Assembly (NCBI RefSeq): GCF_018977255.1
Contig: NW_024704742.1
Span: 124,932,001 to 124,996,000 of the forward strand
Origin: Callorhinchus milii
Lineage: Eukaryota
DNA length: 64,000 nt
Direction of reading: 5' to 3'
The notes beneath the pieces were generated by a model. It searched no databases. It was given only the letters and a program-made list of their open reading frames with translations, and had not been told where the DNA came from. Every line of letters begins with the position of its first letter. Position 1 is the first letter of the stretch. Shown here piece after piece: positions 2,865-55,779 of the stretch. The translations under genes and the position numbers were made by a program.

Positions 2865-3490
2865 AGACCATAAGACCACAAGAAGTAGGAGCAGGAGTAG
2901 GCCATTCAGCCCCTTGAGCCTGCCCCGCCATTTAATAAAATTATGGCTGATCTTATAACCTAATTCCATTTACCCACTCTATCCCCATATCCCTTAATCC
3001 CTCTATCCTTTAGAAATCTATCAACCTCAGTCTTGAATATGTTCAAGGATAGAGCATCCACAGCCTTCTGGGGAAGAGACTTCCACAAATTCACTATCCT
3101 CTGAGTGAAGAAATGTTTCCTCAACTCAGTTTAAAAAGGCTGATCCTTAATCTCGAGACTATGCCCCTTAGCTTTAGATTCTCCAACCAGGGGAAACAGT
3201 CTCACAGCATCTACCCTGTTAAGACCCTTAAGAATCTTATAGGTTTCTATATAATCATCTCTAATTCTTCTATATTCTAGAGAATATAGGCCTAGTTTAC
3301 TCAACCTAACCTCATAGGTCAAACCCCTCATCCCAGGAACCAACCTAGTGAATCTATGCTGCACCCTCTCTAAGGCAAGTATGTCCTTTCTTAAATAAGG
3401 AGACCAAAACTGCACCCAATATTCTAGGTGCGGTCTCACCAAGGCCTTATATAACTGCAACAAGACTTCCCTAATCTTGTACTCTAAAAT
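2865..3490 (-). mobile_element. CR1 LINE 3' fragment (ORF2 C-terminus and 3'UTR)
   Basis: ORF 3131-3508 reads LYKALVRPHLEYWVQFWSPYLRKDILALERVQHRFTRLVPG, a typical CR1 ORF2 C-terminus; octamer tail repeats AGACCATA/AGACCACA at 2865-2880. Confidence 0.92.
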
Positions 3491-3525
3491 GTGCTCTAGA
3501 TGTCTCAAAGCGCTTCACAGAATAT

Positions 3526-3880
3526 TCTCTCTTCTCATTCCCCCTACCAACGCGCCCGTTCCCTCTGCTCAGCCGGCTCTGGCCTGCTCCACATCCCAGC
3601 ATTGGCGGGAGAGCCTTCAGCCATTCTGCCCCCAACCTCTGGAATTCCATCCCGCAGTTACTTTGCCTCACCCGCTCCTTAGGCTCCTTCAACTCCCGCC
3701 TCAAGACTATCCTCTTCGACCATACCATCGGCCACCCACCTTCCCCTCCCCTCCCTTCCCTTCCCCACCCAACCCCAGCTTGAGTCTGAAATGCTGTACT
3801 CTATCCAGCATCTTAGGACATCCTCCCGACTTGAAAGGGGCTATACAAATGTAATCTTGTTGTTTTTGTTGTTGTTGTTG
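3526..3880 (+). mobile_element. L2 LINE 3' fragment nested in a SINE
   Basis: ATTGGCGGGAGAGCCTTCAGCC (IGGRAFS), 3' stem-loop and (TTG)n tail. Confidence 0.88.
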
Positions 3881-4292
3881 TGAATTGACTGTATATTTGT
3901 GGACAAAACACGGCAGCCAATTACTCCAGCAGTGTCCCACAAACAGTCGTGGATTGAAGTGACCAATGTATTATTGTTTATTTTCTTGAGGGATTATTAT
4001 CAGGCGTGTGGAGTAAGGAAACTTGCCCAAGGTTTTGCCCTGCCCGGAATCAGATCCAGGTTTCTCGTTTGTGAGGCGAGTGCTCTAACCACTGAGCTCC
4101 AGGACTCTGGATTCATATTCAAATAAAATTAAATGTTCTTCTTTCAAGCATTTAATTCTGCCAATTTTCACCTCTTCTGAGAGTGTTTAACTTTCTCTTT
4201 GTTTGGGGTAAGGTTCCACAGGTAATGTCGGATCATTCATCCAAGTTTCCTTTATTCATGTGTGAGCCTTAACAGAGTAGTGAATGTTGGCA

Positions 4293-4534
4293 AAACGCAA
4301 AATACTGCAGATGCTGGAAATCTGATACAAAAACAGAAGTCGCTGGGAACACTCAGCAGGTCAGGCAGCATCTGTGGAGAAAGGAAACTGAGTCAACGTT
4401 TTGGGACCACGACCCTTCGTCAGAACGCGTCTGTATTCTGACAAAGGATCGTGGACCCGAAACGTTGACTCACATTGCTTTCTCCGTAGATGCTGCCTGA
4501 CCTGCTGAGTGTTCCCAGCGACTTCTGTTTTCGC
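4293..4534. mobile_element. palindromic non-autonomous element, probably Penelope-like (PLE) pLTR-derived, with hammerhead-like cores
   Basis: Inverted arms of ~96 bp (4330-4425 and 4436-4531); 14-bp direct flanks AG(T/C)GAATGTTGGCA at 4279-4292 and 4535-4548; consensus CTGACGA-A-GGGTC-GTG-GACCC-GAAA-CGTT. Confidence 0.7.
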
Positions 4535-4891
4535 AGCGAATGTTGGCAGGCTATTTAACCAAACCCAATCCAGCCCTCATTCATTATTCAGTATTTTGTT
4601 TTGAACTAGCCATCAGGAGCAAAAATCCTGGCCAGCATCTCTCTCCCAGAGAAAATTATCATAGTCTAAGCTCCTGCAAGTATGCACAGACCAGGGTTCA
4701 AATCTTTTACTTACACCTCTGTGTGGCAAAAATGAGTTGGTCCCTTAAGCCAGAAGGCCATTGAGAAATCACTTTGAATTGTTGTTGATGAAGTACACAA
4801 TAATGTAAACTTTACTTTGTAAAGCATTAGAAACTTAGCTAAGTTTAATATCAAGTTATTTGTGATTTTAAGAGAAACAAATATATTAAGT

Positions 4892-6253
4892 GTACCCACC
4901 CACCTAAAAACAGCCGTCATCACCCCATCTTGAAAAAACCCTCCCTGGACCCATCCCTTCTCTCCAGCTACTGCCCCATTTCAAAGCTCCCATTCCTCTC
5001 CAAGGACCTGAAACGAGTCGTCGCGTCCCAGCTCCATTCCTTTCTTTCTCACCATTCCCTCTTTGAACCCCTCCAGTCCGGATTCCGTGCTGCCCACAGC
5101 ACCGAAACAGCCCTGGTCAAAGTCACTAATGACATTCTGAACATCTGCGATCAGAGCTCCCTCTGCCCCCTTGTCCTCCTCGACCTCTCTGCCGCCTTCG
5201 ACACTGTTGACCACTCCATCCTCATAAACCTCCTCTCCTTTTAAATAATCTTCGCAGACCTGCCCTTGCCTAGTTCGATTCCTATCTCTCTCACCGTCTC
5301 CACTTTGTTGCCTCTAACGGTTTCTCCTCCAGCCCCCGCACTGTCACGTCTGGCGTCGCCCAGGGCTCTGTCCTTGGCCATCTCCTCTTTAATATCTACA
5401 TGCTCCCCCTTGGTGACATCATCCACAGACATGGGGTCAACTTCCATATGTATGCGGATGACATCCAACTCTATCTTTCTGCCTCCACCCTCAACTCCAG
5501 GACCACTGCTGTCCTGACAGACTGCCTGTCGGACATCAAGTTCTGGATGAGGGCAAATTTCCTACAGTTGAATGTGAACTAGACTGAGGCCATCCTGATT
5601 GGCTCGCGCCAGCGCCTCTGCACCTCAGGCTCTGGCAACATCAACCTCCATGGTTGCACGCTACAACTCACCAAGCCAGTCAGGAACCTAAGTGTCTTGT
5701 TCGCCCCTCAACTGTCGTTTCTCTCCCACATTCAAGCCATGACCAGCTCTGCCTTCCCTCACCTCTGTAACATCGCCCAACTCTGCCACTACCTCACCCC
5801 TCAGGCCGCTGAAACTCTTGTTCATGCCTTCATCACATCAAGGCTCGACTATGCAAAGCCCTGCATGCCCTCGCCCCACCCTACCTCTGCGACCTCCTAA
5901 CTTCCTATTAACCTGCCCACTCCCTCCACTCAGCCGGCTCTGGCCTGCTCCACGTCCCCCGACCCACCTGCCCCACCATTGGCGGGAGAGCTTTCAGCCA
6001 CTTTACCCCCAACCTCTGGAATTCCATCGCCCAGTCACTCCGCCTCACCCCTTCCTTAGCCTCCTTCAAGTCCCACCTCAAGACCCTCCTCTTCGACCAT
6101 GCCATCGGCCATCCCCTTTCTCCTCCCCTCCCTTCTCCCCCCCCGACCGCTGCTCGGGTCTGAACTGCTGTACACAGTCCAGCGCCTTGGGACGTCCTCC
6201 TGACATGAAAGGCGCTATACAAATGTAATCTTGTTGTTCTTGTTGTTGTTGTT
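4892..6253 (+). mobile_element. L2 LINE, 5'-truncated, disrupted reverse transcriptase
   Basis: KKPSLDP...PISKLPFLSK...QSGFRAAHSTETAL...LLDLSAAFDTVDH; YADD at 5451-5462; frameshifts and stops; stem-loop and (TTG)n tail. Confidence 0.95.
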
Positions 6254-7094: not shown

Positions 7095-7405
7095 AATAAT
7101 AATAATAATCCTTGCATTTGATATAGCGCTTTTCACGTCGGGAGGACGTCCCAAAGCGCTTCACTGTAAAGTGAATTGACTGTATATTTGTGGGCGAACG
7201 CGGCAGCCAATTGCGCACAGCAATGTCCCACAAACAGTCGTAGATTGAAAATGACCAATTTATTATAGTTTTTGGTTTTGGAGGGATTATTATTAGGCGT
7301 GTGGAGTAAGGAAACTTGCCCAAGGTTTCGCCCTCTGCCTGGAATTGAACTCAGGTCTCTCGCTTGCAAATCGAGTGCTCTAACCACTGAGCTACAGGAC
7401 TCCAC
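7095..7405 (-). mobile_element. tRNA-Ala SINE, short subfamily, full length
   Basis: Reverse complement of the 961-1273 type; nearly identical to 9994-10317. Confidence 0.93.
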
Positions 7406-7532
7406 GGTCCAGGGACCAATTTATTTGAACTGACTAGTATAACTGAGCACTGAATCGAGAAGGAATATTGAGGAATATGGCAAGAAGAAAGGTTGGTGCA
7501 GTTGTTCTACACAGTGGAACCAACAATTATCC

Positions 7533-7674
7533 AAAACACCAAATACTGCAGATGCTAGAAATCTGAAACAAAAACAAAAATCGCTGGGAACACTCAGCAG
7601 GTCAGGCAGCATCTATGGAGAAAGGAAAGTGAGTCAACGTTTCGGGTCCACGAACCTTCGTGAATTCTGACGAA
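7533..7674. mobile_element. PLE-like palindromic element, one arm plus start of the second arm
   Basis: Matches 4293-4425, then turns round into CTGACGAA at 7667-7674. Confidence 0.7.
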
Positions 7675-7830: not shown

Positions 7831-8109
7831 TAATAATAATTATAATAATCCTTGCATTTGATATAGCATTTTTCACATCTTCTAGACGTCTCAAAGCGCT
7901 TCACAGAATAGACTAAAATGAATTGACTGTATTTTTTTGTGGCGAAATGCAGCAGCCAATTGTGCGCAGCAGTGACCCACAAACAGTCATGGTTTGAAAT
8001 AATCAATTTATTATTATTTGTCGTGTGGAGTAAGGTTTCACCCTGCTGGGAATCGAATCCAGGTCTCTCACATGCAAACTGAGTGCTCTAACCACTGAGC
8101 TACAGGACT
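7831..8109 (-). mobile_element. tRNA-Ala SINE with internal deletions
   Basis: Tail, body and head (GAGTGCTCTAACCACTGAGCTACAGGACT) on the minus strand. Confidence 0.88.
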
Positions 8110-9993: not shown

Positions 9994-10317
9994 ATAATAA
10001 TAATAATAATAATCCTTGCATTTGATATAGCGCTTTTCACGTCGGGAGGACGTCCCAAAGCGATTCACAGAACACACTGTAAAGTGAATTGACTGTATAT
10101 TTGTGGGCGAACGCGGCAGCCAATTGCGCACAGCAATGTCCCACAAACAGTCGTAGATTGAAAATGACCAATTTATTATTGTTTTGTTTTTTTGGAGGGA
10201 TTATTATTAGGCGTGTGGAGTAAGGAAACTTGCCCAAGGTTTCGCCCTGCCTGGAATTGAACTCAGGTCTCTCGCTTGCAAAGCGAGTGCTCTAACCACT
10301 GAGCTACAGGACTCCAC
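9994..10317 (-). mobile_element. tRNA-Ala SINE, short subfamily, full length
   Basis: Complete head, body and tail; near-identical to the 7095 and 19636 copies. Confidence 0.93.
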
Positions 10318-10665: not shown

Positions 10666-12409
10666 AAATCAACTGAAGAATTATTATATTAATAACAACT
10701 TGCATTTATATAGCACCTTTATGCGAGATAGCGTCTGGGAGCGCTTATCAATATCAAAGCAAATTACTAGTAACTGCAGTAACTGCATCATTCGATGGGT
10801 AAATCCAGATTTAGTTATGATTTTCCACCTACTTAAGTATCTGTTCTGATGTGTTCAAAGATTCTGGAATGAACATTTTTGAAGTGTAACATTGACATGG
10901 GCATCACTAAGCATTACATAGTAATATCATAATGAAGCTTTAGTAGTTTAATTTAATGCTTTTGCTGAGCATATTCCACAACAACAACTTGCATTTATAT
11001 AGCAACCCTTCACTCCAGGTGGTCTCGGAGCACTTAAAACAATGGGGTCTAAATTGCGCATTGTGTAAACCATGTGTAAACACATGTACAAATGGAATTG
11101 CAGGTCTGGGTAATTGTGTAATTAACAAGCAATAAAAAGGATTACTGGCGATTCCCTCATGAATTTGATGCAATGAAGGAACAAGACATTCACAAGGCCT
11201 GCAGGTTGTTTGGAAAATCAAGAGCTGTGAAGAAAAAAAACTTCTCTTTCCACCAGTGCTCACTCTGTCTGAGCAAAATTGGAAAGAATTCTGTCATTCT
11301 CGGAACACACTTAGTTAGTTTAAAATATCAACAGCAGGGAAACATGCTTTTCATATGAGAACATAGATAAAATAGGATGCAAAGGTCAGCATCCTCACCT
11401 GACTTGATACAGTGCCTTACCACGTTGTTGAGACATCTCAGAGCTGTATATTAAAGACTTTATATTTTGTGGGTGAAATATGGCAGCCAATTTCGCACAG
11501 AAGTGTCCCACAAATAGATATGGATTGCGTGACCAAATTATTATTATTTTGTTTTTGAAGGGATTATTACCCCTGGAAAGTGATCTGCCAATTGAATAAC
11601 AACAATAACAACAACAAAAAATTACATTTGTTTAGCGCCCTTCATATCGGAAACAACCGGGTTTTTACTTACTGCTGGGTAAACAGAGGGGTGTGGAGAA
11701 AGGAATTAGTCATTATCAAAATGTGGTTGGAGATGGGTATCAGACTATAGTTCCTGTACTGAGAACACAGGGTCTGTGTTACTGGTGTACAGTCTGGGAC
11801 AAAACTAGTGAAAAAACAGGGTAGGAAAGAGAACTGCTCAACTACAAACCTGAATAATTTATGTGGAAAATCAAAGGAAAGAAAGAGATGGCCAAGAAAG
11901 ATATCTAACAGAATTCAGTATTTTTCCCATTAGCAATGTCAAGGTACAGACCTATAATTGCCAGGATTTTGCTTCCGAACATCTTAGAAAGTTAAAATCA
12001 CATTTGTTATCTTCAAGCCTTCTGCTGGCAATAAAATAAAAACGAGTATAAAATGGATAATGACAAAGAAGCATTTTATCTGAATCTGATTGTCTTGTCT
12101 CTGGTGTCTAATCCTTCAGTCATAATTGTCTTTATCTCCATGAAATACATTTATTATAGAGCTGAGCCTTCTCTGTAACTCAAAACTGACCATTTGAGCC
12201 ATTTACACTTTATAATATATCCTGTCAAGTGCTTTGAGAAGTCTTGATGAAGTGACAAAGCGCTATCATAAACGCAAGGATTTGGGATATGCAATCGTTT
12301 CTTCAGCATAACAGTACCAAAATGTAAATAAATAAAAAAAATTGTGCAGATAAATGAAATTAGCAACACTAACAATTTGGAATAGTTCAAGAGACTACTT
12401 TTTTTGACA

Positions 12410-12730
12410 TAGAATTACATAGAATGATACGGAACAAAAAAATTCCATTTGGCCCAAATAGTCCAGCCCAATGTTTACACTCAATACAAGCCTTCAATCC
12501 TAATCCCCTCACCTATACACCTCTATTCCCTTCTCCCTCATACAAGCAGCAAGACTCCTCTTAGATCCGCTTTTTGCTTTAACCACTGCTTCCAGCATTG
12601 AGTCCACATTCTCACCACTCTCTATGTGAAGAAGTTCCTCCTAAACACTCTTTTAGATTTTCTATTGTTTATCTTATATTGATGTCCCCTTATTTGGGAT
12701 TCCCCAGCAAGTGGGAACTGTCTATTAATG
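12410..12730 (-). mobile_element. CR1 3'UTR relic
   Basis: CATAGAATTACATAGAAT tail, CCACATTCTCACCACTCTCTATGTGAAGAAGTTCCTCC; similar relics at ~2455-2720 and ~17970-18400. Confidence 0.65.
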
Positions 12731-13505
12731 TCCAGCAGATAATATTGAATGATCAGTGAAGAGACACAAAGGGCGGACAGTAACCTGTTCTGCTATAATT
12801 TTACATTTTATATCAATCGGGGGGAACAATGGGGTAAGAATAAATCAAAAATAAAATTTATGAGCAACAGTAAAGTCCAATGGAAACAAAAACAGTGGCA
12901 CAATCTGGATAGATGCCATCATATCTAAGCAGTATCCTAAATGATTAAGATAGAGGTTTGAGTAAGCTTTGTAAGAACTATTTCTGTTTGAAATGAGTTA
13001 GACAGATGGAAAATGAGAAAGATCATAACATTTACCAACATACTGTAAATAATACTGAAACAAGAAAATAGGGATGAAAGGAGTAAAAGGATTAACAAAG
13101 ATTAGAAGAATGTTACATTAAGGATTAGAATAATGAATGGATATGAAAAACAAACTCCCAGCAAACAAAAATTAGGTGAGGATTAATTCCCTCAAAAGAA
13201 GAATTGGATGAACATCTGGTTGGGATTGGGATTGAATTCAAAGGGATACGTACCGGCAGAGAACATTAAATTCTTCAATAGATACAACATTTGCTGTGCT
13301 GCTGCAATGTGACCACGAAAATAACATGTTAGAAAACAACTGTCATTATTTGAATAAGGGAAGTGTGGGTTAGAGAAAATAGGTGTTAATAAACAACAAT
13401 AATTGTTACATTCGCAAAAACGCCTTTGAGGCTAGGAGGGTGTCTCAAAGTGTTTCACAGGATTTACTGTAAAGTGTAGCGATTCTGTATTTGTAGGTGA
13501 ATGTG

Positions 13506-13815
13506 TGAAGTCCTGTAGCTCAGTGGTTAGAGCACTCGCCTCTCAAGCAAAAGATTCCCGGCAGGGCGAAGCCTTGGGCAAGTTTCCTTACTCCACATGC
13601 CTAATAATAATCCCTCAAGAAAAAAAGCAATAATAAATTGGTCACTTCAATCCAAGACTTTGTTTTTGGGACACAGCTGTGCGCAATTGGCTGCCGTGTT
13701 TCGCCCATTAATATACAGTCAATTCATTTTACAGTCTATTCTGTGAAGCGCTTTGACACGTCTAGAAGATGTGAAAAGTGCTATATCAAATGCAAGGATT
13801 ATTATTATTATTATT
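13506..13815 (+). mobile_element. tRNA-Ala SINE nested in an older minus-strand Deu-type SINE
   Basis: Full SINE with putative TSD AATGTG (13500-13505) / AACGTG (13816-13821); host spans ~13395-14150. Confidence 0.88.
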
Positions 13816-13987
13816 AACGTGGCAGCCAATTTGCACACAGCAATGTCCCAAAAACAAGCACAAAGCAATAAGTCAATTTTATCTGGGGGATTGTAGACCA
13901 GGATACCATAAGAAATTCCTATCTCTTTATGATTGTGACCTGGGTCCATCTGAACTGACAGACAGACTCTGGTTTATATATATATAT

Positions 13988-14277
13988 ATAATAACAATAA
14001 CCCTTGCATTTGATACAGCGCTTTTCACATCTTCTATACATCTCAAAGCGCTTCACAGAATAGACTGTAAAGTGAATTTAGATTTAATAAAGTTTATTGT
14101 CTCATCTGAAGGAAGAAACCTCTCACAATGCAGCATATCCCCATTACGCTCATTATGTTTCGCCCACAAAATATACAGCCAATTCACTTTATAGTATATT
14201 CTGTGAAGCGCTTTGAGATGTCTCGAAGACATGATAAGGCACTATATCAAATGCAACGATTATTATTATTATTATTA
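13988..14277. mobile_element. two oppositely oriented SINE 3' fragments
   Basis: Minus-strand tail 13988-14078 and plus-strand 3' half 14155-14277. Confidence 0.78.
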
Positions 14278-14304
14278 CAGCGGAATGTCAGCTTAGGCTA
14301 TGAA

Positions 14305-14600
14305 TTCAAAGGAGTAGGCCATTCAGCCCTTTGAGCCTGTCCCTCCCTTCAATTAGATCATGGCTGATCAGTACCTCAACTCCAATTTCCCACTTTTTCC
14401 CCATATCCCTTGATACCCTTACCTAACAAAAATTTATCCACCTCAGTCTTGAAAATTTGAACGGATCCAGCATCCACAGCATTTTGGGGGAGAGACTTCC
14501 AGATTTCCACAGTCAATTGCATGAAAAAATACTTTCTGATTTCACTCCTCAATGGCCTAGCTCTAATTTTAAAATTTGCCCCCATGATCTGGATTTCCCC
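14305..14600 (-). mobile_element. CR1 3' fragment
   Basis: FKIRARPLRSEIRKYFFMQLTVEIWKSLPQNAVDA...FKTEVDKFL; aligns to 2885-3150. Confidence 0.85.
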
Positions 14601-16240
14601 ACCTTTTTCCCCAGTTTCTTTGTTCTGTCTATTTCTCCATTTTCTGTAGTTCAAATGCAAATTGGGATAAATTTAAATAATAATAAATGTCCTTCCATTT
14701 GACATAGCACATACCACTGTCAAAACATTTAAAAGCTCTTTATGGGGAAGTGTGGTCAAATGCAGTGATATTGTATTTGTAAGCAAATATTGTAGCTATT
14801 TCACAAACATTAAGCGAATGATTAGTTTAACTGGAGAATTGTTGGCTGTGAGGATCTCACATCTCTTTTTGAACAGTGTCATGGGCTCTTTGTCATTTGC
14901 TGGAACATGCAAAATGGGTTTCACTTTAACATCTCATCTGAAGGATGACACCTCCAACAATGCTGCATTCCTCCAGTACCTCACTGAAATACCAGCCTAG
15001 GATGTAAGGTTAAATCCATAAAGGGGCAGGAAGGGTGGGGTCGGGTGGGAAGAGAAGCAGATGCTGGAAAGATGATTTTAAAGAGATTATTCGGATGCAT
15101 TCATAGTAAACAAAGAATTAAAGAACAAATGGGGTTTGTTCAACATGACAGATGAGATAAAGTGGGAAGATAAAGACATAGCTGCGGTTTTAGTGTTTTG
15201 TGTTGATATATACAGTATTATATACAAGAAGGTGTGCAAAATTGTAATAGGTTCAAGTTCTTAAACAGATAAAATATATTATATATATAGTTGCAGAAAC
15301 AGTGTTTCAAAGCTACTCTCAAGGGATGTGGTACTTTAATAAAAAGGGGAAATATTCACGTCTCATTCTAGAGTTTTACTCTTCTTTGTATCATTTTTGC
15401 TGCACTTATTCTGCAAAGTAATCTGAGAAAAATAGTAGGCCATCTTAGACTCCTGGAACTTCTCCTAACCGTTCAGTATTATTTTGTTCTTCACAGTATT
15501 ATATTTGGTGATAGAAGAATATCATTTCTCAGCATAAAGAACAGCTCAATATTTTACAAAATTCTAGAAAAATGCTGCAATTTTCCCGTGATTTTGATTT
15601 GCCCTCTAAAATGATGGTCTTCATAATCTTCAAAGGTAAAGTAGTAAGAGTAATGCAATATAGATGGGAATAAAACATCCAATGAACAATTTCCAACCAG
15701 AAGCCTGCGATTTCCCCAAGTGTGATTTCATTCGTAAACCCAGTGATACACACCAATTTCAGTGGTGCAGAACATTAGAGTAATGAGGTGCATATCGTAT
15801 TTCTCATGTTTTTATCTTGTATCAAAATATGTCAAATTATTATCTATCAATTTAATCTTAATGTCAAATTTCCGCCTGGACGTGCTCTTAGATCAGTGCT
15901 TTTGATCCGCTCCAATCACCGAAATACTTTCAGATGGTCTTTTATTTGTGGCAACTTTGTTTGTAATAAAGTCCCCTTGCAGTTCGTATCGGTGAAATGT
16001 ATTTTATTGGAATTATATGTAATTTTTCCTCAGTCTCAGCACTTTCTTCTATTTTAAGGTCCTGAGTGACCCATTTCCAGCCACTGTGTCTCTTTTATGC
16101 TTCCGAGCTTGAGACCAGGATTTGTGAATATATACTTGAAATTGAGGTGGTGGAAGTGGAACAAGAATCTGATGCTGAAAAATTCTTCCTGTTGCAAAGT
16201 GTTGCAATGAGAGCAGAATAGAAATAGTAGAAATAATATA

Positions 16241-16603
16241 TAATAACCCTTGCATTTGATATAGCACCTTATCACGTCTTCGAGGCGTCTCAAAGCGTTT
16301 CACAGAACATATTGTAAAGTGAATTGTCTGCTGTACTTTGTGGGTGAAACGCAACAGCCAATTGCACACAGCAGTTTCCCACCCAACAGTCACGGATTGA
16401 GTGAGCAAATTTTTTTTAAGGTATTGTTATCCCCGGAAAAGTGATCTGCCAATCGACTAACAACTGCATTTCTGCTTACTGCTAGGTAAACAGAGGCTTG
16501 TGGAGTATGGAAAGCTGCCTAACGTTTCGCCCTGCCTGGGAATCTAACGCAGGTTCTCTCTCTCGCGAGGTGAGCCCTCTAGCCACTGAGCTACAGGACT
16601 CCA
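16241..16603 (-). mobile_element. tRNA-Ala SINE, long subfamily
   Basis: Has the extra CTCTGTTTACCTAGCAGTAAG...GTTAGTCGATTGGCAGATC segment. Confidence 0.85.
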
Positions 16604-19009
16604 TGAGCACCACCAGTAAATAGCCAACTGAGTATCTAAAAAAGAATTGGGCAAGCACATTGTAGAGGATGGATAATTCAGGGTATGTGGAAAGAGGCGA
16701 GTACTGGGATTAGGATGGATGGTTTCTTGGAAAAACAAATACCAACATGAAATCATGAGCTGGATATACTTCCACTGTGTCATATAGTTCTATGGTTCTG
16801 TAGGATTATAAATCACAAGTTTAAGGAAAAAGTTTACTTCTCTCACAAAGAAATATTTTTTATAAGTAGTCTCCCATCTAAAGGAAAAACAATTTACATG
16901 TATTTAATGCCTTTCACTTAGAGAGGCCGTCGCAAAGCACTTCATATTGTTGAAATTGGGGTGGGGTTTGGGGGAAGGAAGATGACCAAAGTGCAGTTAA
17001 AAGGAGGACTATTTAGGTGGGCTTTTATGGTGGGTAGGGAGGGATCAAGATGGAGCAACTCTGGGATGGAGTTGCAGAAAGGAGACAGAATGGCTGAAAT
17101 CTCATGCACTGATGGTGGGAGGACAAGAAACGGGGAGTTTCTCCCAGTGTCCTGGCCAACAATCTCCCAAATAAAACTGGACCTTCAATCCATGGCTGTT
17201 TGTGGGATATTGCCATGTGCAAATTGGCTGCCTCGTTTGCTCACAAAATACACAGAGTCACTACACTTTGAGACATCTTGACAAAGAGTTAAGGTTCCTT
17301 ATGAAGTGCGAGGAGTATTATTATTATATAGAAAGGAGGTCCACCAGACATGAAAGGTGCTATACAAATGTAATTTGCTGTGGTTGTGTAAGGAAAAACT
17401 TCCCGATGTCTGCACTAAAATTGTCCTTGAGGTCCCTGGACCTTGTGACTGTGTCCTGTAGCCTTAGCACATATGAAAGTAGTGTTCTGCATTTGTTTTT
17501 CTTATCCCATTTAGTATCTTAAATTTATCTTTTCGGAACCCCTCTAAGATGTCTCTTTTCAAAACTGAAGATCCCTAGCTAATCTGGTCATTTCTCATAG
17601 CTCACGCTTTTAATACTTAGGATCAGTGCTCAGTACTCTCATTACTCTCTTGTGTCCAGTCTTTGTGTTTCTAAATCTTGTACTGCAAATGTTTCAATTA
17701 GTTTGACCAACACTGAGAGCAGCACAAACTGAACCATACAACAATCACTTGTGTTTATGTAGCGCCCTTCACGCAGAGCAGCCTCTCGGAGTGCTGCCCC
17801 ACGTGTCAACCATAACAACACAACAAATTATACTTGTATAGCGCCCTTCACGTCGGAAAGATGTCCCAGAGCACTGGACAATCAGGGGTTTGGGACTTGA
17901 GATTGACCCATAGTCTATCTTCATTGAAGCGTGAAAAGTGCAGCAGTCCTAAAGGTTACATAGCTTACCTAGAGTGATACAGCACAGGAACAGGTAATGC
18001 GGTCAACTAGAGCTATCCAATTCAATCCTACTCCCTCGCAATCTCCCCAAAGCCCTGCAAACTTGTCCTCCCCAAAAACGTATCTACTTATCTCTTAAAA
18101 GCTGTTATTGAATCGGCTTCCATCACCCTTTCAGGCAATGCGTTCCAGATCCGAACAACTCGCAGTGTAAAAAAAATTCTCCTCACCTCCCATCCCATTA
18201 TACTCCACGAGTCCCATCCCTCCTATTCCCCTCACCTATACCCCTTGATTCCCCTCTCTCTTGTATGCATCAAGTATTTCTTAAATATATTCAGGCTATT
18301 TCCTTCAAACACAGCTTCCTGCAGTGAGCTCCACATACTCCATAGCTCTACATTAAGAAGTTCCTCCTAAATTCCCCATTTGATCTACTATTATCTCTAA
18401 GGAATAATTATTGTTTCGTTGCAAGGTTATGTTTCTTTTAACTGGGAATGAATAAAAGCTCATGTTGAATACTCTTACCCATCTGCTAATGGCATGTTGC
18501 CTGTCTTGAGAAGAATTAATGTCACAACAGAACAAGCAAGTAACCTACTATTCAACAGAGTTAACAATGACAGGACGTATTTTTATGAAAATATATATTT
18601 TTAAAATGCTGCATTTTTTCAATCTAATTCTTGTTTGAGGTCATGTTTGATGTTGTTAAAACGGTTTGCAAAGATGATATTTGTTCCCACCCCATTGAAG
18701 GCATGAAATAGAAGAATCTGTTTAAGTTTGAATCTCAGTACTTTTTGTTTTAAAATAATAGGTGCCTAAGCCAATAACTTGACAACAGCATGTCAATTAA
18801 TAATGAAGATTTCCAGACAAACTAAACTAGTTGGGCGGAGGTGAGGGTGAGCACTAAAGAGCAATATGAATCAACCTGCAAGACAAAGCAAGTGGAGCCT
18901 CCCCATTCATCTCAGTAAGGATTGGATGAGTTATGCCTCTGTCTTGGTCTGCTAGCATATTACACACAAGTGCGATTTTGTGTGAAGAGACTGAACGCTT
19001 CAGCTGAGG

Positions 19010-19428
19010 TACAGTTCACGTTCCTAATCCTCCTCACCTTCAAAGACCTCCATGGCCTTGTTCCCCCTACCTCTGTGACCTCCCAAACCCTACCATCCTG
19101 CCCGCTCCCTCCACTAAGCGGGCTCTGGCCTGCTTCCCATCCCCGCCTCGCCCAGCCCACCATTGTCGGAGGGGCCTTCTGCCGCTCTGACCCACCCTCT
19201 AGAACTCCATCCCACAGTCCCTCTGCCTCGCCCCCTTACTTGCCTCCTTCAAGACTCATTTCAAGACCCTCCTCTTCAACCGTGGTTCTGATCACCCTGC
19301 TTCCCCCCCTGCCCTCCACCCTCCCCAATCCCAAACCCCAGCTCGGGTCCGAAACACTGACTGTCCAGCGCCTTGGGATGTCCTCCAGACTGAAGTATGC
19401 TATACAAATGTAATATTGTTGTTGTTGT
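19010..19428 (+). mobile_element. L2 3' fragment (diverged)
   Basis: FLILLTFKDLHGLVP, IVGGAF, stem-loop and (TTG)n tail. Confidence 0.8.
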
Positions 19429-19541
19429 AATCATCAGACAGTATTTCATCAAGTCACTCACTGCATGTCTTCAGCTTCATCTTTACTGAGAATGTGAACA
19501 GAAAAAAGGCTGGAAAAGGAGGAATAGTAGGGATGTTTTTT

Positions 19542-20679
19542 TTTGTTGCCTCTAACAGTTTCTCCTCCAGCCCCCACACTGTCACATCTGGCGTCCCCCA
19601 GGGCTCTGTCGTTGGCCCTCTCCTCTTTAATATCTTGTGGAGTCCTGTAGCTCAGTGGTTAGAGCACTCACTTTGCAAGCGAGAGACCTGAGTTCAATTC
19701 TAGGCAGGGCGAAACCTTGGGCAAGTTTCCTTACTCCACACGCCTAATAATAATTCCTCCAAAACCAAAAACAATAATAAATTGGTAATTTTCAATCTAC
19801 GACCGTGTGTGGGACATTGTTGTGCGCAATTGGCTGCCGCGTTCACCCACAAATATACAGTCAATTCACTTTACAGTGTTCTGTGAAGCGCTTTGGGACG
19901 TCCTCCCGACGTGAAAAGCGCTATATCAAATGCAAGGATTATTATTATTATTATTATTACATGCTCCCCCTTGGTGACATCATCTGCAGACATGGGGTCA
20001 ATTTCCACATGTATGCGGATGACACCCAACTCTATCTTTCTGCCTCCACCCTCAACTCCAGGACCACTGCTGTCCTGACAGACTGCCTGTCGGACATCAA
20101 GTCCTGGATGAGGGCAAATTTCCTACAGTTGAATGTGAACTAGACTGAGGCCCTCCTGATTGGCTCGTGCCAGTGCCTCAACACCTCAGGCTCTGGCAGC
20201 ATCAATCTCCATGGTTGCACACTTTAGCTCACCAAGCCGGTCAGGAACCTAAGTGTCTTGTTCCATCCTCAACTGTTTTTTCATCCCCACATCCAAGTCA
20301 TGACCCGCTCTGCCTTCCCTCACCTCCGCAACATCGCCCGACTCTGCCACTACCTCACCCCTCAGGCCGCTGAAACTCTTGTTCATGCCTTCATCACATT
20401 GAGGCTCAACTATGCAAATGCCCTGCTTGTCGGCCTTCCCAGTCACTCTGCCCCTAACCTCTGGAATTCCATCCCCCAGTCACTCTGCCTCGCCTCTCCT
20501 TAGCCTCCTTCAAGTCCCGCCGCAAAACCCTCCTCTTCGACCATGCCATTGGCCAACCCGTTCTCCTCCCCTCCCTGACCCCAGCTCAGGTCTGAAATGC
20601 TGTACATTGTCCAGCGCCTTGGGACGTCCTCCCGATGTGAAAGGCGCTATGCAAATGTAATCTTGTTGTTGTTGTTGTT
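19542..20679 (+). mobile_element. L2 LINE RT fragment interrupted by a SINE
   Basis: [25 protein letters not shown]...YADDTQLY; (TTG)n tail; collinear with 4892-6253. Confidence 0.93.
19636..19958 (+). mobile_element. tRNA-Ala SINE, short subfamily, nested in L2
   Basis: Full SINE splitting the L2 sequence AATATCT|ACATGC. Confidence 0.93.
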
Positions 20680-20715
20680 AATGGGTTCACTCAGCAAAAA
20701 AGGACTAGATGGGGC

Positions 20716-20854
20716 AAAACTCAAAATACTGCAGATGCTGGAAATCTGAAACAAAAAAGTCGCTGGGAATACTCAGCAGGTCAGGCAGCATCTATGGAGA
20801 AATGAAAGTGAGTCAACGTTTCGGGTCCACCACCCTTCAACAGAACTGATGAAG
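20716..20854. mobile_element. PLE-like palindromic element, third copy
   Basis: Matches 4293-4425, then CTGATGAAG; putative TSD GA(C/T)TAGATGGG at 20703-20713 and 20861-20871. Confidence 0.7.
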
Positions 20855-20989
20855 ACTGAAGATTAGATGGGCTTGGCTAAAAAACAATGGTGTAGTTCTG
20901 TGTGTGTGTGTGTGTGTCTGCGTGTGTGTACGTGCACACAAGTCTGGGTTTGTACATGTACTAATCTGTTTTTTTATAAATTATTTAAT

Positions 20990-21353
20990 ATAGTAATCTT
21001 TGCATTTGATATGTCATCGAGACGTCTCAAAGCGCTTCACAGAATACACTTTAAAGTAAATTGACTGTATATTTTGTGGGCAAAACACAGCAGTCAATTG
21101 CACAGAGCAGTGTCCCACAAACAGTCATAGATTGATTGACCAAAAATAATTTTTATTTTTTATTTTACATTTTTTTTAAGGAATTATTACCCCCGGAAAA
21201 GCGATCCGACAACCAGGTTCGTACTCACTGCTAGGCAAACAGTGACATGTGGAGTAAGGAAACTTGACCAACGCTTTGCCCTGCCCGGGAATCGGAATCA
21301 GGTTCTCTCGCTCGTGAGGCGAGTGCTCTAACCACTAAGCTACACGACTCCAC
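20990..21353 (-). mobile_element. tRNA-Ala SINE, long subfamily
   Basis: Head, long internal segment and tail on the minus strand. Confidence 0.85.
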
Positions 21354-34494: not shown

Positions 34495-34802
34495 ATAATA
34501 ATAATCCTTGCAATTGATACAGCACTTTTCACATCTTCTCGATGTCTCAAAGTGCTTCACAGAATAGACTGTAAAGTGAATTGACCGTATATTTGTAGGC
34601 GAAACGCGGCAGCCAATTGCGCACAGCAGTGTCCTACAAACAATCATGGATTGAAAATGACCAATTTACTATTATTTTGGAGGGATTATTATTAGGCGTG
34701 TGGAGTAAGAAGACTTTCCCAAGGTTTCGTCCTGCCTGGAATTGAACCTAGGTGTCTCGCTTGCAAGGCGAGTGCTCTAACCACTGAGCTACAGGACTCC
34801 AC
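34495..34802 (-). mobile_element. tRNA-Ala SINE, short subfamily
   Basis: Full length; head nearly identical to the 961 copy. Confidence 0.92.
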
Positions 34803-37140: not shown

Positions 37141-38310
37141 AACAACAAAAACAACAATAACAAAATTACATTTGTTAAGCGTCTTTCACGTCGGGTGGAT
37201 GTCATAGCAGTCGAGGATCAAGAACTGAGTGTGGGGGGGTAGGGTTGGGATGAGAGAGGGCAGAAAGGTAGGAGGGTGGCTGAAGGCATGGTTCGAAAAG
37301 CAGGATTTTGAGTCATGCCTTGAGGGAGGTAAGGGAAGTAGCGAGGTGAAGGGACTGTTGGTTGGAGTTCCAAAGGGTAGGGCAGAGAAGCTGAAAGTCC
37401 GTCCGCCGATGGTTGGGCGGGTCGGGCTGGAGACATGGAGCAGGCTGGAGCCTGCTGAACGGAGGGAGCGGACAGACTGATAAGGAGTTAGCTGGTCAGA
37501 GAAGTAGGAGGGGTCAAGGCCGTGGAGGGCCTTGAAAGTGAAGATGAGCATTTTGAATTCTTTCCTCTGAGGGATGCAGAGTCGGCAGCCGGGCGAGGGT
37601 GGGGGTGAGGGGATCATGGAGCCTCGTGCGAGAGATGATACGAACTGCAAAGTTCTGGATGATTGCAGCTTGTGATGGGGAGGTCGATAAGGAGGAAGTT
37701 TCCATAGTTGAGCCTTGAGGTGACAAATTGGCTATGAGGGTTTTGGCAGCCTGAGGGGTGAGGCAGTGGCGGAGTCGGGCAATGTTGCAGATCTGAGGGA
37801 TGGCAGAGCGGGAGAAAGGACAGTTGAGGGATGGATAAGATGCCGAGGTTCCTGACTGGCTTGGTGAAGTGGAATGTGCATCCGTGGATACTGATATTGC
37901 CAGTGCCTGAGGTGCGGAGGCGCTGGCACAAGACAATCAGGAGGCCCTTGGTCTTGTTTTAGAAAGTTGGCTCTTATCCACAATTTGATGTCTGACAGAC
38001 ATTCAGTCAGGACAGCAGTGGTTCTGGAATTGAGGGTGGAGGCAGAGAAATAGAGTTGGGTATCATTCGCGTACATGTGGAGGTTGACCACATGTCTGCG
38101 GATGATGTCACCAAGGGGAGCCTGTAGAGTTTGAAGAGGAGAGGACTGAGGACAGAGCCCTGAGGAACACAGTATGAGACTGTACGGGGGCTGGAAGAGA
38201 AACCATTGGCAGAGACAAATTGAAGATGGTGTGAGAGATAAGACCTGAACCACTCAAGGACAGAATCTTGAAGGTTGAGGTGAGAGGTGAGGCGGTGGAG
38301 AAGGAGCATC
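37141..38310 (-). mobile_element. L2 LINE RT fragment, older subfamily
   Basis: WFRSYLS...[40 protein letters not shown] across shifted frames; tail at 37141. Confidence 0.92.
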
Positions 38311-39484
38311 ATAAGCACATACCTTAACAGCATAAGCACATACATTAACAATGTACAATTCATTCTGTCTGCTCTTTACATATATTGAAGCTTTTGAAGT
38401 CAATGATCCTATTGCAATATCCTATTGTAAGTACACATCAAACTATTTGCTACATTGTATATAGCGAAAAGACCAGAGCACCCTCGCATATAAACAAATC
38501 TATTTAACAATCGCCACCTACAAAACAGATTTTAAATGTGTTTTTATGTTTTCTACATTGTTAACAGTATTGGTTGAGTATCCGAGCTGAGGTTGGGAGC
38601 TGAGGGGGTTGGAAGGGGAAAGGTGACCAAAAGCGCAGTCAATGAGGTAGGTCTTGAGATGGATTTGAACAAGTTGAGGTGAATCAAAGGGTTTTGGGGT
38701 GGGGTTCCAAAGTGTGGGAGCAGAAAGGCTGTAAGCCTGCCTCTGATGGTGGATCGGGGGACATGAAGGAGGTCAGTGCTCGCTGAGTGAAGGGAGTAAG
38801 CAGATCAGTGGGGTGCAGAGCAAAACTCCTATATGAGGTACCGTTGCTTACTATAGTCCCCATTTGGGTGACTATGATATTCACGTAATTTTCTGCACTG
38901 CAGATGTTAGACTAGCTGGTCTAATATTCATTCTTTCTTTAAGTACATTTGATATCCTCCAAACCCCATGAACAGCTCCTGCATTACTGGAGCTCCTCAA
39001 AAACATTAGCCGTTGGATTGGTTGCAAGAAGGACAAGGGCAGTCTGTGAATAATTCACTGGACAGTGCTGCTACTCTATGAGCAAGTACCTAGCCTCAGC
39101 TTGTCATCACCCTGTTGATAAGGTGAGGACATGGAACATACAGTGGAGCAATGCATATCCTGCCACTGTTTTGCACTACATGTTGACACACAAAAAANCT
39201 CCATTCTCCTGCCAATTCCAGATATTCATTAATCCTTATCAAAAACAACAACTTGCATTATATATTGATCTTCACACAGGATAGTGTCTTGGGGCGCTAT
39301 ACAGCAGTGGGTGTGATTGCTGGGCAAGGGCAAAGGGGGAAATGATCATTGGTGCGGTTGAAGAGGTAAGTCTTCAGTTGGATGTAAAGACAAAGAGGAG
39401 GTGATGTGGAGGGATTGAGGTAGAGAGTTCCAGAGGTTACTCAGCATGTAAAATCAATTAAAGTAATTTTATAACTGGTATACT

Positions 39485-42912: not shown

Positions 42913-43227
42913 ATAATAATATAATAATCCTTGCATTTGATATAGCGCTTTTCATGTCTTCTATGTCTCAAAGCACTTCACAGAATAGACTGTAAAGTGA
43001 ATAGACTGTATATTTGTGGGTGAAATGCGGCAGCCAATTGCGCACAGCAGTGTCACACAAACAGTCGTGGATTGAAATTACCAATTTAATATTGTTCTTT
43101 TTTTGAGGGATTATTATCAGATGTGTCGAGTAAGGAAATTTGCCCAAGGTTTCACCCTGCCGGTAATCGAACCCAGGTCTCTCGTTTGCAAAGCGAGTGC
43201 TCTAACCTTTGAGCTACAGGACTCCAC
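42913..43227 (-). mobile_element. tRNA-Ala SINE, short subfamily
   Basis: Full length on the minus strand. Confidence 0.9.
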
Positions 43228-46074: not shown

Positions 46075-46810
46075 CTGTCTATGGCAGTTCACTACCTCTG
46101 AGTGCATAGGAACATCCATCCATGTCATTTGATTTTTCTGGCAGTGCACAGGAATTTCCATCCACAGTGTTTGATTTCCTTGGCAGTATCTTTCCATGGC
46201 ATTCAATTCAATTTACCTGGCAGTATAGGCTAATTGTCCTTAGCGTCAGATTTCCCTGGCAGTATTCAAGCTTTCCAGCCATGATGTTTCAATTCCCTGG
46301 CAGTGTAAGAATTAATTGTGAATGGCATTAAATTTCTCTAGCAATTCAGTGGCTATCCAGCCACAACATCTGATTTATATGTCAATGTAGGGGGCCCATT
46401 CCATGTATGTGCCCATGGAATCCAATTTCTGGACTGGTTGGCCCATGTATTTATAGCATTCAATTTCCAGGGTAGTACAGAAGCTATTCATGCTTGACAT
46501 CTGATTTCTATAGAAGTGCAGGGAGCCTCCATGGCATCCAATATTCCTGACAGTCTACATGCATGGCATTCAATTTCACCAATATTTTAATAGATCCATG
46601 TGCTAGTCGTGTCTGATTTCCCTGTAGTACAGTTGCTATATATGCCTGTCTATGCATTTGTGGTATCACATTTCTGTTACATCTGGTGCATATATCTATG
46701 CATTTGAGATGCATGATTTTTCTCACTGGGTAGTGGGTTAAATATCTACAACAGTGAATTTCCCTGGTGGTTAAGGTGTGTATCATTGACATGCCCTCCA
46801 ATTTCCCTAT
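46075..46810. repeat. degenerate ~40-bp tandem repeat (minisatellite)
   Basis: Core RATTTCCCTGGCAGT; GGCAGT at 46140, 46182, 46219, 46258, 46299 and decayed units beyond. Confidence 0.75.
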
Positions 46811-50999: not shown

Positions 51000-52680
51000 G
51001 GTGGTCTATAGTATACATAACAAAGTAACAGTTCATTTTCTGTTCCTTAACGGTAACAAAATAGATTCTATTTTTGGACCCTCTAGCACAGCATCCCTTT
51101 CCAGGGCCGTAACCGTGTCTTTAATCAATATTGCCACTCCCCATTCTTTTTTTCCCCTTCCCTGTCCCTCCTGAATACATTGTTGCCAGGAATATTCAGC
51201 TCCCATTTCTGCCCTTGTTTACCATTACATCATAACCCCATGTGGCAACTTGAGCCTACAGCTCACTAATCTTATTTGTCACACTCGTGCATTTACGCAC
51301 ATGCACTCCAAGACCAATTTAGTCTGTTCTGCATTTCTCCCCTTCTAATCCCTCCTTTTTCTGGATTATTCCTGATCACATTGTTATTCGTCTCTCCCAG
51401 CCCTCAATGTAATTTGTATGTCCTCTCTAATGCTACATCCTGATTCCCTTCACCCCACAAAATTAGTTTAAACCCTTCCCCGCATCACTAGTTAACCTCC
51501 CTGCGAGGACATTGGTCCCATCCTTGTTTAGGTGTAACCCATCCACCTTGTACAGGTCCCACCTGCACCAGAACTGGTCCCAATGATCCAGGAACCTGAA
51601 GCCCTTCTTTCTGCACCATTTCTCCAGCCATGCATTCATGTGTTTGATCCTGCTGCTTTGACACTCACTTGCACAAGGCACTGTGAGTAATCCAGAGATC
51701 ACCACCTTTGAGTTCCTACTCTTTATCTATTTCCCTAGCTTCTGATACTCTCCCTGTAGGATCTTAGCCATTTTTTTCCTTATGACATGGATCCCAACAT
51801 GGACCACGACTTCTGGATTTTCGCCTTCCCCCTATAGAATATTTTGCATAATTTCCATGAAGTCTTCAACCCTGGCACCAGGGAGGCAACATACCATGTG
51901 AGAGTCATGTCTTTGGTTGCAGAAACACCTATTTACTCCATTGACCATTGTGTCCCCAATGACAATTGCATTGACACTCTTCTGTGTCCCTCCCTGTGCA
52001 TCCATTTGCTTTTGACTCCCCTCCCCAGAGATGTCATCACCCTGACCGGTATTCAGTGCAGAGAACTGGTGTGTGAGTGCCACACTCTCAAGGGATTTCT
52101 GCACTGCATGTCCCCTCTTTCTACCATGCTGGGTGGTCATCAATTCGCTCTCCTTCTGAACCCTCTGTGGCTGTGGGGTTACCACTTCCTGAAACGTTTG
52201 ATCCATGAACTCTTCAGCCTCCCTTATGCTAAGTAGTGACACCAGCCTCTCCTCAAGCTCAGAAAGTCTGATCTCAAGCTCGAACAGCCAGAGGCACTTC
52301 CTACACATGTGTCTGTCCAGGGCACACAAAGCATCCTGGAGTTCCCACATTGAAACAATGTGCATGCAATTTGTCTCAACTGCCCTGCCATATTCTCAGA
52401 CATGTTTCATATTATCTTAATATAACTATTATATATTTTATAATTATGCATCTTTTTCCCCCTCTGCACCGAATTCCACTCTCACCAAATCCCTTAACAT
52501 AATTCTCACTGTTCCACCTCACTCTTACATATCAGGTTGCCTCTACCTCAAGATATATTTCCCACTCTTCTGCTGAATGAAAGAGTTCTCTCGCTGGAGA
52601 AATCCCACTTTCACCAAATTCCTTAACAGAATTCTCACTCTTTTCCACCTCACTCACTTTCCTTCTCATGCTGCTGGGCT
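51000..52680 (-). mobile_element. CR1 LINE 5' region: 5'UTR, ORF1 (zinc finger, coiled coil, SGNH esterase) and start of ORF2 endonuclease
   Basis: MWEL...HMCRKC..LELEIRLSELEERL, IVIGDTMV...VCCLPGARVED, VISGLL...NAWLEKWCRKKGFRFLDHW...DGLHLN; CVNAR and YRPP remnants; stops present. Confidence 0.9.
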
Positions 52681-54495: not shown

Positions 54496-55568
54496 CAACA
54501 ACAACAAGATTACATTTGTATAGCGCCTTTCACATTGGGAGGACGTCCCAATGTGAAACAGAGTACAGCATTTCAGACCCGAGCAGGGGTTGGAGGGAAG
54601 GGAGGGGAAGGGGGGTGGCCGATGGCATGGTCGAAGAGGAGGGTCGTGAGGTGGGACTTGAAGGAGGCTACGGAGGGGGCGAGGCGGAGTGACTGGGTGA
54701 TGGAATTCCAGAGGTTGGGGGCAGAATGGCTGAAGGCTCTCCCGCCAATGGTGGTGGGGGGGGGGTTGGGTCGGGGGACAGGCCAGAGCCGGCTGAGCAG
54801 AGGGAGCGGGCGGATTGGTAGGGGGTCAGGAGGTCACAGAGGTAGGGTGGGGCGAGGCCATGGAGGGCTTTGTATGTGAGGACCAGGATCTTGAACTGGA
54901 TCCTCTGAAGGATAGGGAGCCAGTGGAGTTGGGAGAGAGTGGGGGAGATGGGGGTCACAGAGTTTAATGCGGGAGAGGACACGGGCTGCAGAGCTCTGGA
55001 TTATCTGCAGCCTGTGGAGGGAGGAGCTGGGAAGTCCGACAAGCAGGGCGTTTGCATAGTCGAGCTTGGAGGTGATGAAGGCATGAACAAGAGTTTCAAT
55101 GGTCTGAAGGGTGAGGTAGTGGCGGAGTCAGGTGATGGTATGGAGGTGAGGGAAGGCAGAGCGGGTCATGGCTTGAATGTGGGGGAGAAAAAACAGTTGA
55201 GGGTCGAACAAGACACCTAGGTTCCTGACTGGCTTGGTGAGTTGTAGTGTGCAACCATGGAGGTTGATGTTGCCAGAGCCTGAGGTGCTGAGGCGTTGGC
55301 GCGAGCCAATCAGGAGGGCCTCAGTCTTGTTCACATTCAACTGCAGGAAATTTACCCTCATCCAGGACTTGATGTCCGAAAGGCAGTCTGTCAGGACAGA
55401 CGTGGTCCTGGAGTTGAGGGTGGAGGCAGAAAGATAGAGTTGGGTGTCATCCGCATACATATGGAAGTTGACCCCATGTCTGCGGATGATGTCACCAAGG
55501 GGGAGCATGTAGATATTAAAGAGGAAATGGCCAAGGACAGAGCCCTGGAGGACGCCAGATGTGACAGT
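54496..55568 (-). mobile_element. L2 LINE RT fragment nested in a Deu-type SINE
   Basis: [22 protein letters not shown]...[23 protein letters not shown]; putative TSD GTCAA at 54494-54498 and 55567-55571; host ~54190-55650. Confidence 0.94.
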
Positions 55569-55779
55569 CAATCTTGACTGTGAGTTCAAATGTCCAACGT
55601 AAGGCTTGAAAGCACAACCTTGTAACTCAGAAGAAGGCTGTCAAATGAGCCATGGCTCTCAATGCCATTCTCCATACTTTAAAAGTAAAATAAGTAAAAG
55701 TATAAATTTTCACATATTTACTTTTTGCCTTCTTAAAATTTTAGTTTTAATCTTAACAAAGATTCTAAATATAAATATT

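Follow-up and report, generated by a model that had tools for sequence, protein, structure and literature searches.

The insertion and its surroundings

A stretch of 64,000 nucleotides from Callorhinchus milii (NCBI RefSeq assembly GCF_018977255.1, contig NW_024704742.1, positions 124,932,001 to 124,996,000 of the forward strand), here called the window and numbered from its first letter, carries at 4279-4548 a compact insertion in which two versions of one sequence stand head to head. Each inverted arm (4330-4425 and 4436-4531) is 96 bp long, in agreement with the original prediction of about 96 bp; the pair has 9 mismatches and encloses a 10-nt spacer (4426-4435), and the insert region folds into a single hairpin (-180.4 kcal/mol, z -19.3; 0 of 200 shuffles are equally stable). 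On either side stands one copy of a direct repeat, 4279-4292 and 4535-4548 on the plus strand, of a length (14) reached by 1 of 3000 random position pairs under the same rule. The 14-bp target site duplication that had been proposed is present as a direct repeat, though an imperfect one: identity is at 13 of 14 positions, and the final 1-2 nt of the left copy coincide with the family terminus at 4291/4292 that is known from the loose ends described below. The arm-bearing insert itself, 4291-4531, is 241 bp and consists of ends only, with neither reverse transcriptase (RT) nor endonuclease sequence.

The left arm, whose sense strand is the minus strand, corresponds to a 136-nt unit (4291-4426) that is read here as the end of a Penelope-like element (PLE) and is made up of a hammerhead, a downstream stretch and a tail. 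The decayed minimal type-I hammerhead occupies 4391-4426 (C3 at 4423, G8 at 4418, stem II 4415-4411 with 4407-4403, predicted cut 4395|4394), with G12 changed to A at 4402 and a stem II mismatch at 4406. Downstream of it, within 4388-4291, a pyrimidine tract is followed by YAG (4374-4372), ATG (4371-4369) and 27 open codons, a candidate splice acceptor and ORF start. The optional 3' tail of 35-38 nt (4291-4328, minus strand), which lies between the two termini of the family, is restricted to this arm. The first base of the head-to-head junction spacer still belongs to the family unit and its remainder is private to this copy. The right arm (4436-4531, plus strand) is an inverted, tail-less unit that stops at the inner terminus, the mirror of 4330, and holds a second decayed minimal hammerhead (4436-4470, plus strand; G8 at 4443 has become A, and stem II is mismatched at 4448); three extra bases, 4532-4534, separate it from the right copy of the direct repeat. 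Thus the outer terminus is used on the left and the inner one on the right, and each arm stops just upstream of the hammerhead core. The spacer region 4426-4436 resembles a stutter, in which the junction is briefly and imperfectly copied in inverted form before the right arm starts again, and may record aborted priming.

Two further copies lie in the window. Copy 2 (7532-7674, minus strand) is a tailed arm with a 2-nt core deletion and a 10-nt inverted stub (7665-7674); a target duplication was looked for around 7532-7674 and was not found. Copy 3 (20715-20860, minus strand) is a tailed arm with a lesion at A6 and a 9-nt inverted stub (20846-20854), and between its flanks, 20703-20713 and 20861-20871, there is a direct repeat identical at 10 of 11 positions, 7 of 3000 random pairs reaching a length of 11. 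Both are one arm plus a stub of 9-10 nt, and not long palindromes. The unit starts in all three copies no more than 2 nt from the equivalent of 4426, and their inversion points agree within 2 nt, at a small palindrome that overlaps stem I; the spacer across which the sequence folds back is 10 nt in copy 1 (the insertion at 4279-4548), 0 in copy 2 and 2 nt in copy 3, where the fold-back is exactly at CAG-AA-CTG. The inverted ends of pseudo-LTR (pLTR) type and the duplications of variable length that the original prediction had named as PLE features are both seen, the latter as 13/14, none and 10/11 in copies 1, 2 and 3. The 30-nt flanks of the three copies are 50-63% AT and so not notably AT-rich. 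Copy 3 also has a 6-nt echo at 20855-20860, similar to the stutter in the copy 1 spacer, that may record aborted priming. Copy 2, without its target duplication, sits between a SINE and what we take to be a CR1-like ORF1 piece.

The window is otherwise rich in tRNA-headed SINEs and LINE fragments. Its ten tRNA-like Rfam matches (964-1035, 4035-4106, 7335-7397, 8038-8109, 10242-10313, 13509-13569, 19641-19712, 21285-21342, 34727-34798 and 43152-43223) are probably tRNA-derived SINE heads in the most abundant repeat of the window, and not tRNA genes. Among 76 window ORFs (stop-to-stop frames of at least 90 aa, a length at which short decayed PLE pieces can be missed) Pfam finds RVT_1 in five and a GIY-YIG domain in none, and no RT or GIY-YIG ORF adjoins any of the three copies. 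Broken RT frames with RVT_1 matches lie at 4849-5900, 19781-20500, 37189-38375 and 54671-55640, with copies 86-93% alike; by their motifs the five RVT_1 frames are presumably LINE pieces, and the broken frames 3' fragments of L2-type LINEs. Frames at 3131-3514, 14376-14672, 51832-52395 and 7460-7530, for which Pfam gives no match, are taken by us to be CR1-type LINE pieces (the end of ORF2, and the zinc-finger/esterase region of ORF1). A 42-bp tandem repeat in two copies is present at 46101-46187.

The hammerhead motif and its decay

The majority sequence of the window arms has CUGANGA with one A added, then stem II (5 bp, with a loop of 3 nt), GAAA, a C-G pair, UU and a 3-bp stem I. A descriptor of it is matched by 0 of 20,000 dinucleotide shuffles on either strand, the real match being on the sense strand only, and stem II forms within the majority core with a pair probability of 0.98-1.0. 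The minimal type-I hammerhead of the original prediction is in this respect borne out by the sequence features of the majority, which agrees at every position with the minimal hammerhead (min-HHR) consensus given in the supplement of PMC4209133. Helix III is reduced to C-G and stem I is 3-4 bp, so that the helix III and the loop 1-loop 2 contacts of a canonical type-I hammerhead are lacking; a self-complementary AACGUU duplex is possible (-5.7 kcal/mol).

An intact core has no match in the window, and no single window copy satisfies the min-HHR consensus. All four full-length window arms (4403-4423, 4438-4458, 7640-7664 and 20823-20846) are damaged twice, once in the core and once in stem II. 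The damage that had been noticed in both arms of copy 1 is confirmed as G8 to A at 4443 and G12 to A at 4402, and both are CpG-type transitions. The Rfam search that had been suggested gives no hammerhead, either for the region 3800-5000 at E<=10 (six matches, one of them a tRNA and five due to chance) or for the whole window at the gathering score, where the ten tRNA matches are returned. An exact 22-nt pattern has 0 matches in viral contigs; one match in prokaryote genomes and one in metagenomes, with alignments of only 22-29 nt, were set aside as chance.

A conserved core had been expected, and in the window it is not the more conserved part: changes affect 8 of the 84 sites in core and stem II and 15 of the 361 downstream (four window arms; Fisher p 0.056, in the direction opposite to conservation; 3 of these 8 changes lie at CpG), as is to be expected of dead insertions. 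Since core and stem II are no better conserved than the sequence downstream, the inserted copies are not under selection for the ribozyme. If the excess of lesions in core and stem II were to hold genome-wide after CpG masking, it could mean that intact ribozymes within host transcripts are selected against.

The family in public sequencing runs

With the left arm (4262-4440) as reference and a likeness of 80%, four public runs were searched, one of RNA and three contig sets from three coded organisms. The family is of very high copy number, with 7,246 RNA reads and 17,858, 10,972 and 19,875 contig records matching one arm. Loose ends peak at 4291/4292 and at 4327/4329 in all four runs, with A-rich heterogeneous flanks among the 24 listed of 801, and these peaks imply that the family can end at either of two 3' sites, separated by 35-38 nt, between which the tail lies. 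Among the joints listed, 4292 is joined directly to 4329/4330 in two. Opposite strands are joined in 14 of the 15 joints listed of 77, nine being head-to-head with unequal arms, two tail-to-tail and three ambiguous; these orientations are our own reading, forced by the lengths of the sides, and symmetric hairpins may be under-represented in contigs. As the arms of the head-to-head joints are unequal, the palindrome is not a fixed design of the family.

Loose ends also pile up at 4426 in all four runs (668, 247, 119 and 295 records), and agreement beyond that point is 0.36-0.47. The letters just past it are TG in all four, and stem I thereby gains a fourth base pair; three of the four have in common some 18 nt of G-rich sequence beyond 4426, so some copies reach further upstream.

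At 4406 the family letter restores stem II in 97.6-99.3% of the depth; at 4402 it restores G12 in 49-66%, a fraction that decay at CpG, together with bias towards a reference that is itself mutated, has probably lowered. One loose-end consensus of run X1 (108 contigs, agreement 0.58) has an intact core, with stem II as AGGUC/GACCU versus GGGUC/GACCC, and this G-C to A-U change at pair 10.1-11.1 is the sole compensatory change seen; a further change, at 4411, is wobble-compatible and is itself at a CpG site. Core conservation as judged from the read tables was rejected as a test because matching favours the reference, reads are clipped close to their ends and 40 of 90 rows are listed. Variants at 4339, 4348, 4350, 4373 and 4408 reach 13-40% in runs X6 and X2 and stay under 6% in X1, from which several subfamilies are to be expected, the window copies being nearest to the run X1 mix.

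A candidate ORF start and splice acceptor

From the minus-strand ATG that follows the pyrimidine tract and YAG there are 27 open codons to the end of the tail and 14 to the inner end, and the candidate ORF is open in three of the four window arms, in the same frame. The combination of YAG-ATG and 27 open codons occurs in 109 of 20,000 shuffles, a count made post hoc. There is a resemblance to the 12 + 22 codons inside the pLTR and tail of Adineta Pen2a, as described in PMC3846280. A 40-aa query against longer proteins gave 11 candidates, none at E<=1, and a 30-aa query against 1.84 billion representative proteins gave 0 matches, both weak blanks given such short queries. The stretch 4388-4291 (minus strand), like its equivalents in copies 2 and 3, is branch-point-like and pyrimidine-rich, and there is a second U-rich CAG in the tail. 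In insertions that lie in the sense orientation within host introns the YAG stretch could act as a cryptic splice acceptor.

Can the two cores work?

With the cores on opposite strands, any one RNA has just one of them in sense, and the helix III of a dimer cannot therefore form in one RNA. Folding of the RNA of the whole insert gives stem II a probability of 0.0 on either strand, both cores being buried in one hairpin. Given two lesions per core, their placement on opposite strands and a read-through RNA that is predicted to be one hairpin, no cleavage is expected at 4279-4548, and by these models it is almost certainly absent. The proposal that the family is by design palindromic, with cores on both strands, is accordingly not supported, the inversion points differing among copies and read-through RNA burying the cores.

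In the RNA run (X21, whose organism may differ from that of the window) 46% of the first mates are on the plus strand and 54% on the minus strand (7,246 reads of 13.87 million). No pile-up of RNA starts or ends on the arm is present in this run, a polyA single-cell library and so a poor cleavage test; its reads are consistent with passive transcription and are no test of cleavage. Dimer cleavage of PLE hammerheads was reportedly described by Lunse et al. in 2017. In PMC4209133, monomers of minimal hammerheads did not cleave, and tandem dimers cleaved at a low level.

Relation to known elements

Minimal hammerheads are described from the pLTRs of metazoan PLEs, mostly as solo dispersed copies in the thousands (Cervera and De la Pena 2014, PMC4209133). 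The motif here shares with them CUGANGA plus one nucleotide, G10.1-C11.1, GAAA, a self-complementary 15.2-16.2, NUH, a short stem I and the absence of helix III, and rows of the alignment in that paper have C-G-U-U and a 5-bp stem II, as here; the alignment rows compared here include no cartilaginous fish and no identical sequence. Opposite-strand min-HHR pairs 100-700 bp apart are already in the same paper. The C3-to-C3 distance here is 14 nt and those pairs are farther apart; its examples are tied to an ORF, whereas the present insert is without such a link.

PLEs that bear an endonuclease (EN+) are reported to have an inverted copy at the 5' end and a one-sided tail of 30-40 bp (Craig et al. 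2021, PMC8557442), and elsewhere an inverted pLTR 37 bp shorter than its partner, a 31-bp tail, target duplications that are 8-10 bp long or absent, and palindromes at the junction that were read as self-priming (Arkhipova et al. 2013, PMC3846280). A one-sided optional tail and a variable inverted copy with a palindromic junction, the marks of EN+ PLEs, are found in all three window copies. As far as those accounts go, the insertion is like EN+ PLEs in its head-to-head end, in an inverted copy that is shorter by about the length of the tail, in the palindrome at the junction and in an ORF start possibly within pLTR and tail; it differs in a target duplication (12-14 bp) somewhat longer than 8-10 bp and in that only ends remain.

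Anole Poseidon protein is reported to cleave and extend both strands in vitro, with two internal RT starts that delimit the tail, and hammerhead cleavage to be dispensable for insertion in vitro and assisted by the protein (Frangieh et al. 2024, PMC11167929). PAc of Anolis carolinensis likewise has two alternative 3' ends, with the hammerhead some 90-125 nt upstream of them; its targets are AT-rich, with which the A-rich flanks of the loose ends here may be compared, and no RNA-seq reads end at its hammerhead cut site. The PAc ORF begins at stem II; here N7 is C, which leaves no AUG, and the sole candidate start is 44 nt further down.

Retrozymes are described as units repeated head to tail on the same strand; canonical hammerheads and RNA circles are typical of them (Cervera and De la Pena 2020, PMC7229834; Li et al., bioRxiv 10.64898/2026.07.22.740005). 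Animal non-LTR retrozymes as so described resemble the insertion in being non-coding, in a type-I hammerhead, in kinship to PLE pLTRs and in long target duplications; unlike them, the insertion is head-to-head, of minimal type and decayed. No head-to-tail array of the unit is found among the 12 TRF rows for the window, and direct joints are 1 of the 15 listed. With no tandem of the unit in the window and a hammerhead that is not canonical by the descriptions in those two sources, the term retrozyme-like that had been used is not sustained.

A probable insertion scar and its alternatives

The insertion is very probably a dead retro-insertion, the 3' end (pLTR plus tail) of an abundant EN+ PLE in the known head-to-head inverted form. 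The PLE origin first suggested for it gains support from the tail, the inverted ends, the variable target duplication and the minimal hammerhead. The GIY-YIG endonuclease would nick both strands some 12-14 nt apart, as the literature on such enzymes leads one to suppose, and the interval would later become the target duplication that is observed. The two 3' termini, 35-38 nt apart in the data, would reflect two internal RT starts, as in anole Poseidon. The first cDNA may then have halted at CAG-AA-CTG, the small palindrome made up of stem I and the first letters of the core. Fold-back self-priming at that palindrome would be one source of the inverted arm, and a second cDNA started from the other nick would be the alternative. 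The stubs of copies 2 and 3 fit fold-back priming, since they are without a 3' end; the long right arm of copy 1 (4436-4531) fits either fold-back or a second cDNA at the opposite nick. An attempt to separate a fold-back from a two-template origin by the differences between the arms gave no discrimination, the nine differences being private or at CpG. The hammerhead would on the dead-insertion reading be a passenger of the pLTR, and in active parent elements it would probably cut after GUU, as a dimer or with assistance from protein.

A refinement of this explanation, and not one that excludes it, is that the 136-nt unit is no truncation of a long element and is itself a non-autonomous master, a SINE-like parasite of a PLE with a fixed 5' end, with the inversion still arising at insertion. 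This has a real chance of being right, and a smaller one than of being wrong. That the three window copies begin within 2 nt of 4426 and that the loose ends of all four runs pile up there with so little agreement beyond are what it would lead one to expect, and non-autonomous PLEs have been published for Chlamys, according to PMC8557442. Against it, the G-rich continuation of about 18 nt past 4426, with similar consensus in three of the four runs, indicates that some copies continue upstream; contig counts would point to flanks that are each unique rather than to one common continuation that has collapsed; and the small palindrome offers a mechanical reason for a hotspot of truncation. A stricter form, in which the 5' end of a fixed 136-nt parasite is set by CAG-AA-CTG and the ribozyme sequence doubles as the fold-back primer of the second strand, is rather improbable. 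If such a parasite does exist, its thousands of short junctions, in which one arm ends at the outer terminus and the other at the inner one, could decide from genomic data whether the inverted ends and tails of PLEs come from fold-back priming or from two-nick, two-start reverse transcription.

Much less can be said for a retrozyme-like palindrome that spreads as one complete hairpin and has functional cores on both strands, and it is judged very unlikely. The copy at 4291-4531 does have both cores and a target duplication; the stubs in two of the three window copies are just 9-10 nt, the spacers are unlike (10, 0 and 2 nt), contig joints have unequal arms, both cores are predicted to be sequestered in the RNA of the whole insert with opposite strands precluding the helix III of a dimer, and a tandem array of the unit is absent from the window. 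Least credible of all is a MITE or fold-back DNA transposon with terminal repeats that are hammerhead-like by chance, for which the long inverted arms, the want of coding capacity and the high copy number might speak, since the arms are not terminal on both sides (the 38-nt tail is one-sided), the target duplication is long and variable (13/14, 10/11 or none) where fixed symmetric terminal inverted repeats with a short duplication would be looked for, most copies are single-armed or unequal, there are two alternative 3' ends and none of the 20,000 shuffles yields the motif. The preference of the original prediction for a retroelement over a DNA-transposon MITE is upheld by the one-sided tail, the variable arms and the variable duplication.

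Significance

As a decayed insertion of a known class the single locus matters little. It is an ordinary member of that class, each of its structural features being already described for PLEs: papers already report opposite-strand pairs, inverted pLTRs and a tail on one side, and the proposal of an under-described system is not supported. A literature search found no paper on this family in cartilaginous fish; Repbase and Dfam lay outside that search, and the family may well be catalogued there. The supplements of bioRxiv 10.64898/2026.07.22.740005 list a chondrichthyan family, which could bear on novelty.

For those who annotate genomes there is a warning that hairpins of this kind are neither MITEs nor microRNA precursors nor functional double ribozymes. 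The family, on the other hand, is a large natural data set, with about 11,000-20,000 contig records per run in which termini, tail, junction and target duplication can be read within 250 bp. The origin of the inverted ends and tails of PLEs is debated, with self-priming, endonuclease resolution and two internal RT starts each having been put forward, and a census of the junctions of this family could test between them.
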